Both the position numbers and the translations under genes were made by a program. Of a stretch of 42,513 nt of DNA, positions 22,860 to 25,516 are shown piece after piece. The notes below the pieces were generated by a model. That model made no database searches and was not told the DNA's origin. It saw only the letters and a list, made by a program, of their open reading frames with translations. Position 1 is the first letter of the stretch, and each line of letters opens with the position of its first letter. Location of the stretch: the IMG/VR virus record IMGVR_UViG_3300048605_000012, one strand, 5' to 3'. This DNA is from a virus.

Positions 22860-23704
22860 AGTTCTTCACCTTCAGCTTCCAATGCTGCCAAGAAACCATC
22901 GTCTTCCATATCAAACTCTTCGCTGCCATCCTTATTCTTAGCAATAGCCGCAGCAATCTGCACTTCTCGCAACCGATCACCGCCAAGATATTTCATGAGT
23001 TCTGACATGGCTTTTTGTTTGTCATAAAGTTTGACCGATATGCCGTCTTTCCCCTTTTTGACTTCTTGAATAAGCGTACCATCAACCTCTTCACTACTCT
23101 TCAGTGCAACCTGTGATGATTTGTACGTTTCTAACTCCCCAGTAAACTCGTTAAACACCTCTCGCTTCTCACCAGCATCATCATACTCATATAGTTTGTG
23201 TTCTGTTGATGAGAACTCAACGAAATCAGTGATATCAGCAAACGCCTGCTTTGCGTATTCTCTTATCAGATCTTTTACATCAAGAAAGACATCTTGCTGC
23301 AATTCCGCCTTCAGCCTTCTTAACTCGACCTTTATGCTATCTTTTGCTATCAATCTTATGCTGTTAGACCTAGCGGAATTATAGTCGCATCCATACGCTT
23401 GTTGATACGCCTTCGTTGCATTAAATGATTGTAAATAGTAAAGACAGAACAACTTTTGTTGCTCTGTCAGGTCATCGTTATTAATTATTAATTGCGGTGA
23501 ATCATTTGCCTTATCGGAGTGTTCCTTTTTATTCGGAGCGCTCCTTTTGGAATCGGAACGCTCCCAGTTATCTTGTGATTTCCATTTTCTGATAGTTGAC
23601 GGACGTTCTCCTAATTCCTTGGCTATATCTACTAAAGGTCGTTCTTTTGATTTTAGCCACAATTTATAGGCTTTATCTCTATTTGGGTTTCTTTGTCTAG
23701 CCAT
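22844..23704 (-). CDS. terS: Terminase small subunit (286 aa)
   Basis: N-terminal HTH (LVDIAKELGERPSTIRKWK) and the Terminase_2-like core LTEQQKLFCLYYLQSFNATKAYQQAGY. It overlaps the terL start. Confidence 0.85.
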   Translation of the reverse strand: MARQRNPNRDKAYKLWLKSKERPLVDIAKELGERPSTIRKWKSQDNWERSDSKRSAPNKKEHSDKANDSPQLIINNDDLTEQQKLFCLYYLQSFNATKAYQQAYGCDYNSARSNSIRLIAKDSIKVELRRLKAELQQDVFLDVKDLIREYAKQAFADITDFVEFSSTEHKLYEYDDAGEKREVFNEFTGELETYKSSQVALKSSEEVDGTLIQEVKKGKDGISVKLYDKQKAMSELMKYLGGDRLREVQIAAAIAKNKDGSEEFDMEDDGFLAALEAEGEELWPEE

Positions 23705-23750
23705 CCATTCACCACCACCTCACAGTCTGTGTTGTTTTGTAATAGTATGT

Positions 23751-23779
23751 AAAAAAAGACACCCTGTTTTTAGGGTGTC
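23751..23779 (-). terminator. Rho-independent terminator between the 133-aa gene and terS
   Basis: On the minus strand, GACACCCT-aaaaac-AGGGTGTC is followed by TTTTTTT. Confidence 0.8.
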
Positions 23780-23785
23780 AACCAA

Positions 23786-24184
23786 TTATTTTTTGAACCA
23801 ATCAAGATAGCTTTCTATCGATTTTAAATCAAATAGTTCGCCATTACCCTCATAGACGGCTTTTCCATCTCTATAAATGATATCGTCAATCTTTGTTGCA
23901 TCTAAAACTCCCGGCTCATACACTATAACCTCGATATGTGAATCTCCATCATAATCGACTTTTATTTGGCGGTCTCCGATGCTGAGTACAGTTCCTCTAC
24001 GGTTCCCAGTTTTCGCTACGTTGATATTGTTCTGATTTTCATCGATGTTAAGATCCTCAGTCAATTTATTCTTTAAATTAAAGAATTCACTTGCGATATC
24101 ATCTATAACGCGCTTCATTATCGTCAGCTTAGATGTTTCAGGTAGTTGACTACCTACATATTCTTTCAACTCTTCGTAATTCAT
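23786..24184 (-). CDS. Hypothetical protein (133 aa from MNYEELKEY), first ORF of the late region
   Basis: RBS GGAGGGTGATAAGC before the ATG at 24184. The longer track ORF (to 24403) runs through structured non-coding RNA and has no RBS. Confidence 0.65.
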   Translation of the reverse strand: MNYEELKEYVGSQLPETSKLTIMKRVIDDIASEFFNLKNKLTEDLNIDENQNNINVAKTGNRRGTVLSIGDRQIKVDYDGDSHIEVIVYEPGVLDATKIDDIIYRDGKAVYEGNGELFDLKSIESYLDWFKK

Positions 24185-24208
24185 GCTTATCACCCTCCAT
24201 TCAAAACA

Positions 24209-24237
24209 ATAATAATTGTTATTTAGAACGAAAGCAA
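24209..24237 (-). promoter_or_regulatory. Possible sigma-A promoter for the 133-aa gene (TTGCTT-17-TATTAT)
   Basis: The hexamers lie at 24237-24232 and 24214-24209 on the minus strand, just downstream of the leader terminator. Confidence 0.35.
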
Positions 24238-24240
24238 TGT

Positions 24241-24264
24241 AAAAAAGCAGCCCCGAGGGACTGC
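24241..24264 (-). terminator. Rho-independent terminator ending the structured leader RNA
   Basis: On the minus strand, GCAGTCCC-TCG-GGGCTGC is followed by TTTTTT. Confidence 0.8.
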
Positions 24265-24570
24265 AAAGTAGGAAGTACCAAAGATCATGTGAGTAATCTA
24301 ATCGACAACTCCCAAAGCCACTGGTGAGGACTTGAACCTCACTTACGAGTCGTACACATTCTATGCATAGCCTCTGCATTTCCCCGGTCTGCCACAGTGA
24401 CATAAAATTAAGACGGCTAGCGAATGAAGATAAGGAGTGTGTTCAACTCCATTCATTTTAAATTTTTGGGTGCCGTCTTAATTAAATACAGGGCGCTGAA
24501 AGGTAATCACGAAAGTAGGTCTGCCAACGAATCATAAAGGAGTGCGCCCTGATATTTAAAAATTTCTACA
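24265..24570 (-). ncRNA. Structured untranslated leader / candidate ncRNA (about 300 nt, three helical domains)
   Basis: Domain A (24489-24551) is closed by CAGGGCGC/GCGCCCTG. Domain B (24408-24481) is closed by TTAAGACGGC/GCCGTCTTAA, with nested GAATG/CATTC and GGAGT/ACTCC helices. Domain C (24317-24401) is tRNA-like. There is no RBS-preceded ORF. Confidence 0.55.
24317..24401 (-). other. tRNA-like element (acceptor-like stem plus canonical T-arm, no anticodon arm)
   Basis: On the minus strand, GTCACTG pairs with CAGTGGC. The T-arm is TGAGG-TTCAAGT-CCTCA, with the GGTTCAAGTCC consensus. No 5-bp anticodon stem or proper D stem can be drawn. Confidence 0.45.
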
Positions 24571-24575
24571 ATACT

Positions 24576-24621
24576 ATTGTATCACTGGATTTGTTGCATG
24601 TGTGTGCATGTTTTGTGCATG
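24576..24621 (-). promoter_or_regulatory. Candidate activator-dependent late promoter: three helically phased CATGCA(C/A)(A/C) repeats upstream of a TACAAT -10 box
   Basis: Plus-strand TGTGCATG lies at 24603-24610 and 24614-24621, and GTTGCATG at 24593-24600. The -10 TACAAT is at 24581-24576 on the minus strand. There is no good -35. Confidence 0.4.
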
Positions 24622-24623
24622 GG

Positions 24624-25142
24624 CTACCAATCATTAATCATGTCGATACCAAACAGAACTACCGATAAATCTTCAAGCGCTTCTTTACAGTTGCGACTAA
24701 TAGTAGAACGATCAACATGTAATTGCTCTGCTAATTTATCATCATTCAACAATGGACGCTCAATAAACTTTTTGTTAATGATTCGCCACTTCCGCTTGTC
24801 TTCCGGCTTACCTGTTGAAAGACAAATCTCCTTATAAGCTTCTAGGCATATATCAACATGCTTCATAAGCTTAACTGATTTCGCTTTATTTTGCATCAGT
24901 AAATCGAGGTTCAACCACTTATGCTCCCAAAATGTTCCTTGCACTTCCTCTACATGCTCCTCAACCGCTTCACTATGGGCTTTTAACTTGTGATAGTTGT
25001 TCATCAGCAATCTTGTATTGTGAAAAGCTCTTTTCTTGAACTGTTTTTTCTCATATTCCCTGTCTTTTTGAATTCCTTTCCTAATTTTTAGAGCTAGTTC
25101 ATCTAATTGTTTATCTGAAAGTTCATGAACATTAATTTCCAA
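24624..25142 (-). CDS. Late-gene transcriptional regulator, ArpU/RinA-like sigma region-4 HTH protein (172 aa from the TTG; the track ORF extends to 25196)
   Basis: The C-terminal LAEQLHVDRSTISRNCKEALEDL is a sigma-70 region-4-like HTH. It is the last gene before the packaging genes. The TTG at 25142 sits 8 nt after GAGGAGG. Confidence 0.65.
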   Translation of the reverse strand: MEINVHELSDKQLDELALKIRKGIQKDREYEKKQFKKRAFHNTRLLMNNYHKLKAHSEAVEEHVEEVQGTFWEHKWLNLDLLMQNKAKSVKLMKHVDICLEAYKEICLSTGKPEDKRKWRIINKKFIERPLLNDDKLAEQLHVDRSTISRNCKEALEDLSVVLFGIDMINDW

Positions 25143-25206
25143 TAACTGGACCTCCTCTTTATTTCCACCTTGACTCGGGCGTCTAGATGAATACATTTCT
25201 TTTTTA

Positions 25207-25238
25207 TTTACATTATTTTAATAATCGAGGTATATAAT
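25207..25238 (+). promoter_or_regulatory. Sigma-A-like promoter for the plus-strand small gene (TTTACA-18-TATATAAT)
   Basis: Hexamers at 25207-25212 and 25231-25238. Confidence 0.5.
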
Positions 25239-25262
25239 ATAATTATGAAAGGGGTGAAGACC

Positions 25263-25424
25263 ATGAGTGAACAATTACAAGTACCTTTTGTACACATCAC
25301 TTTAAATACTATTTCAAATCTTTTTCTTGTTTATTATGAAAACAATCCAGAAGTTTTTGCATGTGGTATAACTATAGAAAAAGCTTTAGATAATCTGTAC
25401 AAAGTTACTAGCAGACACTACTAA
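25263..25424 (+). CDS. HicB-like (antitoxin N-terminal domain-like) small protein, 53 aa, not in the ORF track
   Basis: RBS AAAGGGGTG. The sequence is MSEQLQVPFVHITLNTISNLFLVYYENNPEVFACGITIEKALDNLYKVTSRHY. The segment VYYEN-PEVFACGITIEKAL matches the HicB/UPF0150 pattern (from memory). It has its own promoter and terminator. Confidence 0.5.
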   Translation: MSEQLQVPFVHITLNTISNLFLVYYENNPEVFACGITIEKALDNLYKVTSRHY

Positions 25425-25441
25425 AAAGTAGTGCTTTTTTT
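25416..25441 (+). terminator. Terminator of the 53-aa gene
   Basis: CACTAC-taaaaa-GTAGTG followed by CTTTTTTT. Confidence 0.5.
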
Positions 25442-25516
25442 ATTTTCCAAAATGTAAGCCATGTTGATGTTCTTCATCAATGATTAAAACTCTTCAAGGT
25501 CTTACCAAGGACTTTT

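Follow-up and report, generated by a model that had tools for sequence, protein, structure and literature searches.

A tRNA-shaped element without an anticodon arm ahead of viral terminase genes, and its relatives in phages of enterococci

Introduction

Large ornate RNAs of phages, ROOL and GOLLD, have been described near tRNA islands, and the family to which the present element belongs is not described there (PMC5737381; PMC12286853). Our own searches of the literature and of Rfam gave only ROOL and GOLLD papers, and no paper or model was found that describes this family, which is defined in the present analysis and termed class B. Like ROOL (RF03087) and GOLLD, class B occurs in phages and prophages of Lactobacillales beside tRNAs, and in phage phiSHEF16 one of its members adjoins ROOL. 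It differs from ROOL in its unrelated sequence and in its size, the element described here being 85 nt long as against about 580 nt for ROOL.

A likeness of another kind exists with tmRNA and YrlA, in which, as in class B, the "upper half" of a tRNA (acceptor, T arm and D loop) is kept and the anticodon arm is replaced by other RNA. The termini of YrlA form a Ro-binding stem, whereas those of the present element form an acceptor stem; unlike tmRNA, the element has neither G3-U70 nor a tag reading frame. The same proposed logic, in which a tRNA-shaped module defines the ends of an RNA and stabilises a payload, applies to MALAT1 mascRNA, the TMERs (tRNA-miRNA RNAs) of MHV68, the species 1/2 RNAs that lie in the tRNA cluster of T4, and the "tRNA scaffold" of Ponchon and Dardel. 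However, these four systems are eukaryotic, herpesviral, coliphage or artificial, and they have no sequence relationship to class B. Processing has been demonstrated experimentally for them and is predicted for class B.

Phage tRNAs and tRNA islands provide a further comparison. Class B elements share slot, strand, and leader and trailer context with tRNA-Lys(UUU), tRNA-Pro(UGG) and tRNA-Met of sister phages, and have a tRNA-Leu-like D arm, T loop and acceptor stem; unlike a phage tRNA, the 85-nt element has no anticodon arm, and its acceptor/T helix comprises 13 rather than 12 bp. Here we describe this element in a stretch of viral DNA of 42,513 nt (IMG/VR record IMGVR_UViG_3300048605_000012, hereafter the window), together with its relatives in other loci.

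Results

Architecture of the element

The element lies on the minus strand and is composed of the following parts.

24317..24401, minus: whole tRNA-frame RNA gene of the class B family, 85 nt (from the sequence and covariance model R1, described below)
24395..24401, minus: 5' strand of the acceptor stem, GUCACUG, which pairs with 24317-24323
24376..24394, minus: U8, G9 and the D arm, GCA(G) - ACCGGGGAA(A) - UGC, with a 3-bp stem GCA/UGC and with A14 and GG in the loop
24343..24375, minus: central insert of 33 nt in place of the anticodon and variable arms, containing the palindrome CUAUGCAUAG
24324..24342, minus: T arm, with a 6-bp stem GUGAGG/CCUCAC (paired in relatives) and the canonical T loop UUCAAGU
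24317..24323, minus: 3' strand of the acceptor stem, CAGUGGC, then U73, with no encoded CCA (from the sequence)

Read from 24401 to 24317 on the minus strand, the element is GUCACUG-UG-GCAG-ACCGGGGAAA-UGC-(33-nt insert)-GUGAGG-UUCAAGU-CCUCAC-CAGUGGC. The initial annotation, made from the letters of the window, had drawn a 7-bp acceptor-like stem GTCACTG/CAGTGGC with one G-U pair, a T arm TGAGG-TTCAAGT-CCTCA and a D stem of at best 3 bp. All three are confirmed at 24317-24401 on the minus strand, the single wobble in the acceptor stem being U2-G71 and the D stem being GCA/UGC. An extra base had also been placed before the 3' acceptor strand; this base, a C, is indeed present, but it is not unpaired, as it pairs with the G on the 5' side of the T stem and extends that stem to 6 bp. 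The sixth pair is present in all relatives, and ARAGORN also draws the extra G and C in two of them. The resulting acceptor/T helix has 13 bp (7+6), as against 12 bp (7+5) in canonical tRNA. The elbow nucleotides are complete in the window copy (U8, A14, GG, U54-U55-C56 and A58), and the bases 3' of its acceptor strand are TTTGGG. The motif GGTTCRANYCC, for which 0.13 occurrences are expected in the window, was found twice, once in the T arm of the 85-mer.

A canonical anticodon arm (5-bp stem, 7-nt loop, U33 and R37) cannot be drawn in the 85-mer, in agreement with the earlier failure to find a 5-bp anticodon stem there, and ARAGORN at default settings returns zero tRNA and zero tmRNA genes for the whole window. 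Relaxed settings applied to the element yield only an 86-nt "tRNA-???" with a 2-nt anticodon, and the full cloverleaf of an ordinary tRNA is thus found in neither mode. Rfam, including RF00005, gives nothing at gathering scores in the window and nothing at E<=10 in 23300-25500. The 85-mer therefore cannot decode: it has no anticodon arm, and neither ARAGORN nor the Rfam tRNA model RF00005 recognises it. The initial description, an acceptor stem and T arm without an anticodon arm and hence not a normal tRNA, was right in this respect, ARAGORN at default settings and Rfam calling nothing. It had proposed three readings, and the closest of them is a tRNA mimic, although the suggested parallel with YrlA does not hold, since the YrlA model of Rfam gives no match at E<=10 and the architecture differs. 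The tmRNA search of ARAGORN was empty as well, and the pair at 3-70 is C-G in place of G3-U70; the ROOL model (RF03087) has no match in the window.

The minimum free energy of the 85-mer alone is unremarkable (z = -0.67), and the case for the element consequently rests on comparison with its relatives. For the insert, neither the minimum-free-energy fold nor folding of the alignment gives a supported structure. In the middle of the insert, at 24361-24370 (minus), lies the palindrome CUAUGCAUAG, perfect over 10 nt and reduced to 8 nt in the L017 and L059 variants, a potential site of dimerisation or of a tiny hairpin. The insert segment UAGAAUGUGUAC may resemble an enterococcal CRISPR repeat. 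A search for antisense targets gave no above-chance complementarity to the leader unit elsewhere in the window, and none between the 85-mer, the 140-nt type or the trailer and the genome of the proxy host E. casseliflavus.

Genomic context

The element sits in a 440-nt gap between two genes. Its immediate neighbours are, upstream, a regulator gene encoding a 190-aa protein (phrog_1558) with weak similarity to transcription regulators and, downstream, an ORF for a 133-aa protein of unknown family, followed by the terminase genes terS and terL and, by position, the portal gene. The gap contains the following further features.

24489-24551, minus: leader hairpin HP1, an inverted repeat, near-invariant in 29 related loci
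24406-24483, minus: leader hairpin HP2, an inverted repeat followed by a U-rich run, near-invariant in 29 related loci
24241..24316, minus: conserved 3' trailer of about 50 nt, UUGGGAGUUGUC...CUUCCUAC, and intrinsic terminator (from a terminator scan and the conservation profile)
24247-24264, minus: stem and T run of this terminator (from the terminator scan)

In the 29 related loci, a near-invariant block runs from a -10-like TACAAT through HP1, HP2 with its U run, a variable slot and the trailer to the terminator, and column identity outside the block falls to about 45%. Upstream of the block, the gene comes from either of two late-activator-type families (43 loci); downstream, it falls into at least 17 unrelated clusters. 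HP2-like hairpins are also found 5' of class B members in more distant genomes. A hairpin was predicted for the trailer, and the trailer variants that were inspected show mismatches without compensation; we therefore claim no structure for it. A T-box-like trailer, in which a UGGN box would pair with NCCA, was likewise rejected, the candidate UGGU not being conserved. A second strong terminator and the 133-aa ORF lie between the RNA module and terS (23751-24264 of the window), so that the late genes would need read-through of both terminators.

To collect the contents of the slot between HP2 and the trailer, viral, genome and metagenome collections were scanned for the patterns of the conserved flanks. 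Real tRNAs and class B elements are exchangeable in this position: 27 loci carry a true tRNA-Lys(UUU) or tRNA-Pro(UGG), sometimes with a second tRNA (class A), 15 carry an element with the acceptor stem of the window copy (class B), and one (L121) carries a tRNA-Met; the trailer comes after class A tRNAs and class B elements alike. In L126 a real tRNA lies about 140 nt downstream. Neither a tRNA nor a tRNA-like element directly follows the leader hairpins in L115 and L119/L120, and L071 has one elsewhere in the locus. The absence of such elements from some sister leaders implies that the element is dispensable for the leader. Chance similarity, which had been expected to show itself as absence of the element from syntenic leaders, is contradicted by the finding that such leaders carry the 85-mer, a relative or a true tRNA.

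Within class A, the Lys(UUU) and Pro(UGG) versions (L004, L011, L034 and others) are virtually identical in the acceptor (C1-G72), D and T arms and differ only in the anticodon arm and a few bases of the variable loop, which looks like an anticodon-arm swap on one scaffold.

Two similarities within the module of the window are also seen. The interior of HP1, UUUAUGAUUCGUUGGCAGACC (24518-24538), is 76% identical over 21 nt to UUUAUGUCACUGUGGCAGACC (24386-24406) on the minus strand, which comprises the 5' leader, acceptor strand and start of the D arm of the element; it could be the remnant of an earlier copy, or offer an alternative for pairing. The stem at the apex of HP2, GGAGUUGAAC (24441-24450), is complementary at 9 of 10 positions to the T-arm segment GUUCAAGUCC (24328-24337), and likewise to class A T arms, so that an alternative pairing of the HP2 apex with the T arm is possible from the letters.

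The class B frame and its inserts

A scan with the class B 5' 18-mer retrieved 77 further viral loci. Altogether, about 50 unique closed elements (53 listed) of 74-161 nt have a common frame around unrelated centres. The frame begins with GUCACUG-UG-GCGG...CGC and ends with a 6-bp stem, a 7-nt loop and CCAGUGAC; its 7-bp acceptor stem, GUCACUG/CAGUGRC, is accompanied by U8-G9 and a 3-bp D stem with a loop able to form the tRNA elbow, and the 6-bp stem usually bears a T loop. The acceptor stem, U8-G9, the 3-bp D stem and a 6-bp T-like stem with a 7-nt loop adjoining the 3' acceptor strand are all present in the window copy, as in the 53 unique elements. The inserts range from 17 to about 110 nt across types, and that of the 85-nt type is unrelated to the inserts of other members. 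Position -1 is U in most of the 53 elements and G in tandem second copies with a GCTTCG leader; none of the 53 encodes CCA, and the discriminator is, in decreasing frequency, U, A or G.

Two subtypes of the frame can be distinguished. Subtype 1 has a GG-containing D loop and a T-loop-like loop (UUCGAUU and similar), and subtype 2 has the D loop AAGUAGAAGA with loops such as GGCAGUG, AGCAUUA and UGCAAUC/UGCGAUU. An identical insert of the 88-nt type is found on both subtypes (L137 vs L165). In L088 two different types are arranged in tandem; L127, L149, L153 and L192 have two elements each. Frame and insert thus act as independently moving modules.

Pairing in the frame was assessed in a main alignment of 28 sequences, from which the 85-nt type was excluded, and in an earlier 10-row alignment of the T stem. 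The frame covaries: 99.1% of its cells are paired in the 28 rows, with 98.8% pairing and compensatory changes at 5 of 6 pairs in the T stem (100% and 3 of 6 in the 10 rows), 100% pairing and one compensatory pair in the D stem, and 99% pairing in the acceptor stem, the sequence of which is almost invariant. Shuffled and slid controls fell far below the observed pairing, which 0 of 500 shuffles reached. Covariance model R1 was built from the 28-row alignment, i.e. without the 85-nt type, and its sole match in the window is 24401-24317, end to end (model positions 1-115), with 52.8 bits and an E of 1e-12; the 85-mer is thus a member of the family. As regards detection by existing tools, ARAGORN calls just 2 of the 53 elements, with the aberrant anticodons AAA and AAC and without U33 or without R37, the Rfam tRNA model gives no match at E<=10 to the class B elements tested, and in 139 kb of class B loci the gathering scores of Rfam are reached by three true tRNAs only.

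Some members depart from the common frame. A relative in genome G119 has a different acceptor stem, TGCTAAG/CTTAGCA, which is still fully complementary. In this locus (L212; G119:C1:1483450-1483750, minus), the relative with UGCUAAG/CUUAGCA begins 3 nt after a class B element and keeps the 6-bp T-stem design, and the tandem pair occurs three times in G119. In L116 (G024:C2, about 2700-2770) a truncated member is found, in which the 5' half, consisting of the acceptor strand and D arm, runs into a terminator hairpin, with no T arm and no 3' acceptor strand.

Conservation of the 85-nt type

Seven loci (L031, L017, L059/L096, L073, L103 and L088) carry the 85-mer with 95-100% identity, whereas between these loci identity is 49-96% in the leader hairpins, 58-94% in the trailer and about 50% in the flanking genes. 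No other piece of the locus is as well conserved, the whole type having only four variable sites, one of them in the insert. This high identity across loci could reflect recent horizontal spread and not purifying selection on the insert.

These data bear on whether the 85-mer is a decaying tRNA pseudogene, a passive passenger in the late leader, as one of the initial readings held. The derivation from a tRNA is clear from the D and T arms, the anticodon arm is missing, ARAGORN and Rfam reject the 85-mer, and the L059/L096 variant breaks the 1-72 pair (G1-C72), as might be expected of decay. However, the 85-mer is the most conserved segment of its locus, the stems are kept paired by compensatory changes in about 50 relatives, and members occur in lytic myophages as well as in 31 of the 134 species genomes of Enterococcaceae. 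Such conservation and covariation exclude neutral decay, and we regard a pseudogene as highly improbable.

Distribution, ancestry and neighbouring RNAs

Strong R1 matches are found in 31 of the 134 Enterococcaceae species genomes. Among 151 sampled Lactobacillales genomes, 13 have such matches, 7 of these 13 not being in the Enterococcaceae set. Members occur in temperate and in large lytic phages; named phages with members include 4995_1 and vB_ElaS_B1578, and in the latter the element follows a gene annotated as ArpU family. A prophage of E. casseliflavus NBRC 100478 has a member of the 140-nt type (G001:C6:21022-21161), and the E. gallinarum phage EG-TP1 has one of the 91-nt type. In the 150-kb lytic Schiekvirus myophage phiSHEF16, an unannotated member is located in a tRNA island, 13 nt after a ROOL RNA (259 bits). 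Judging from these matches, class B is apparently a large, uncatalogued family in phages of enterococci and their relatives.

Weak R1 matches (about 31 bits, 85 nt) appear in nearly every Enterococcaceae genome, and the two that were inspected proved to be host tRNA-Leu(UAA), which has a D arm very similar to that of the frame. The resemblance suggests that the class B frame derives from a tRNA-Leu-like ancestor similar to host tRNA-Leu(UAA). The D arm of the window copy itself is too diverged to be assigned to a parent tRNA. An ancestry from tRNA-Ser(CGA), to which the L010-type D arm matches at 16 of 17 nt, had been considered and was superseded for the family as a whole by tRNA-Leu(UAA).

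The initial annotation had also proposed a captured 3' tRNA fragment that could act as a secondary recombination site, and a DNA-level role may be broadened to include a secondary attachment site or a part of the packaging site. The element has inverted repeat ends (GTCACTG/CAGTGAC), it lies upstream of the terminase genes, and the slot is evidently a recombination hot spot for cassette exchange. A captured 3' half, however, does not account for the 5' acceptor strand and D arm, which are complete, nor for the RNA-specific tertiary nucleotides, which are kept; in a BLAST comparison of the 3' half with the genome of the proxy host E. casseliflavus NBRC 100478, only 17-nt matches to the T arm were found. 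Against a packaging site, what follows the module varies, with at least 17 unrelated clusters of downstream genes and different small terminase subunits, and members stand in the tRNA islands of lytic phages that do not integrate and do not have the packaging genes in common. An attachment fragment or a packaging site is therefore unlikely in the extreme, and is to our minds the least probable account of the element. The record ends of EG-TP1 fall in this region and had made it a candidate packaging site; they represent a terminal assembly overlap, and the module accompanies different terS genes.

Near class B members we noted a conserved and structured RNA (about 290 nt; ..GCAACCGAGG ... GUAGGUUGCU with a terminator) that has no Rfam match. 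It is located at L204:2509-2800 (phiSHEF16), in L125 downstream of 5474, at L088:4990-5245 and in L117 downstream of 1388, and BLAST also matches the region in other large Enterococcus myophages. Its motifs come after class B in 40 of 71 contexts. The order in phiSHEF16 is ROOL, class B element, 290-nt RNA, and in L088 the 290-nt RNA is flanked by two class B elements.

Such arrangements would suit an element that is processing punctuation only, i.e. a handle for RNase P and RNase Z that separates the leader hairpins from the trailer or from large neighbouring RNAs and carries a functionless insert. The two class B elements that bracket the 290-nt RNA in L088 and the one between ROOL and the 290-nt RNA in phiSHEF16 are in line with this, as are the exchange of real tRNAs for class B elements within one set of conserved flanks and the fact that the conserved part of the family, acceptor plus T arm, is a minimal substrate for RNase P and RNase Z. 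However, a functionless insert would not be expected to show next to no variation within the 85-nt type beside diverging flanks, or to move in identical form between frame subtypes; distant loci keep the frame and not the trailer, and a mere handle needs no sequence-invariant acceptor stem or D arm. We consider punctuation as the sole function unlikely, albeit worth retaining.

Discussion

With slightly more confidence than doubt, we read the 85-mer as a gene that is intact and encodes a tRNA-shaped RNA with no decoding role, and as one allele (the 85-nt type) within a large phage family, in which the frame serves maturation and the insert is the working part. RNase P, RNase Z and the CCA-adding enzyme recognise the acceptor and T-arm part of tRNA, and tRNA precursors without an encoded CCA are matured by RNase Z in Bacillota. 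Since the conserved part of class B is what these enzymes recognise, the frame would serve excision and stability. In the mechanism we envisage, the element occupies an accessory "RNA slot" that directly follows the leader hairpins of the late transcription unit; host RNase P at the 5' end, RNase Z at the 3' end and the CCA-adding enzyme would release and finish the RNA from the late leader transcript, and the tRNA-like frame would confer tRNA-like stability on the excised product. The 13-bp acceptor/T helix and the missing anticodon would keep it out of translation.

The insert is favoured as the working part because it is type-specific, conserved within its type and shuffled between frames. 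It may thus be a type-specific effector carried on a natural "tRNA scaffold" for small RNAs, with a host defence or a host RNA-binding factor as plausible candidate targets.

A different possibility places the function in the frame itself, which would act as a decoy or sponge and sequester or misdirect a host factor, such as a nuclease of a tRNA-targeting defence, a modification enzyme or a T-box leader; the inserts would just block decoding. Conservation of the acceptor stem and D arm goes beyond what pairing requires and extends to the sequence itself, as for a surface recognised by a protein, and the neighbouring allele class in the slot is tRNA-Lys(UUU). This tRNA is the target of the anticodon nucleases PrrC/RloC and PARIS, and phages supply replacement copies of it. 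The element also heads the late transcription unit, from which late expression would be expected. Nevertheless, the discriminator varies between U, A and G, the two frame subtypes differ in their elbow loops, inserts that are hypervariable and yet conserved within types are left unexplained, and no partner protein was found. We judge a decoy distinctly improbable, although not to the degree of a pseudogene.

Returning to the scaffold reading, we would tentatively extend it to a more general proposal, which we hold as a conjecture with less in its favour than against it: phages of Lactobacillales may use one tRNA-Leu-derived frame to express, mature and stabilise fast-evolving effector inserts directed against host defences or RNA-binding machinery late in infection, perhaps together with the cage-forming ROOL and the 290-nt RNA. 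If the reading of class B is correct, a widespread class of phage RNA genes has been missed by current annotation pipelines, the short list of tRNA-shaped RNAs with a non-decoding use would gain an addition from bacterial viruses, and the engineered tRNA scaffold would have a natural counterpart. Members are found beside ROOL and beside anti-defence phage tRNAs, and their role could accordingly bear on the function of ornate phage RNAs and on the manipulation of tRNA biology by phages. In practical terms, a covariance model such as R1 would let annotators label class B elements in place of gaps or pseudo-tRNAs.

Two observations concern the public records. The region is contained in 22 ant-gut metatranscriptome runs, as assembled contigs, which cannot show RNA ends or expression; in three of these runs contigs end at 24439 or 24456, inside HP2, which we attribute to graph branching at a sequence common to several phages. 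Finally, PQ554527.1 ("Acinetobacter phage D2SVT") and PQ283533.1 (Enterococcus phage vB_ElaS_B1578) gave equal identity and score over the tested stretches, and the host label of PQ554527.1 looks doubtful.
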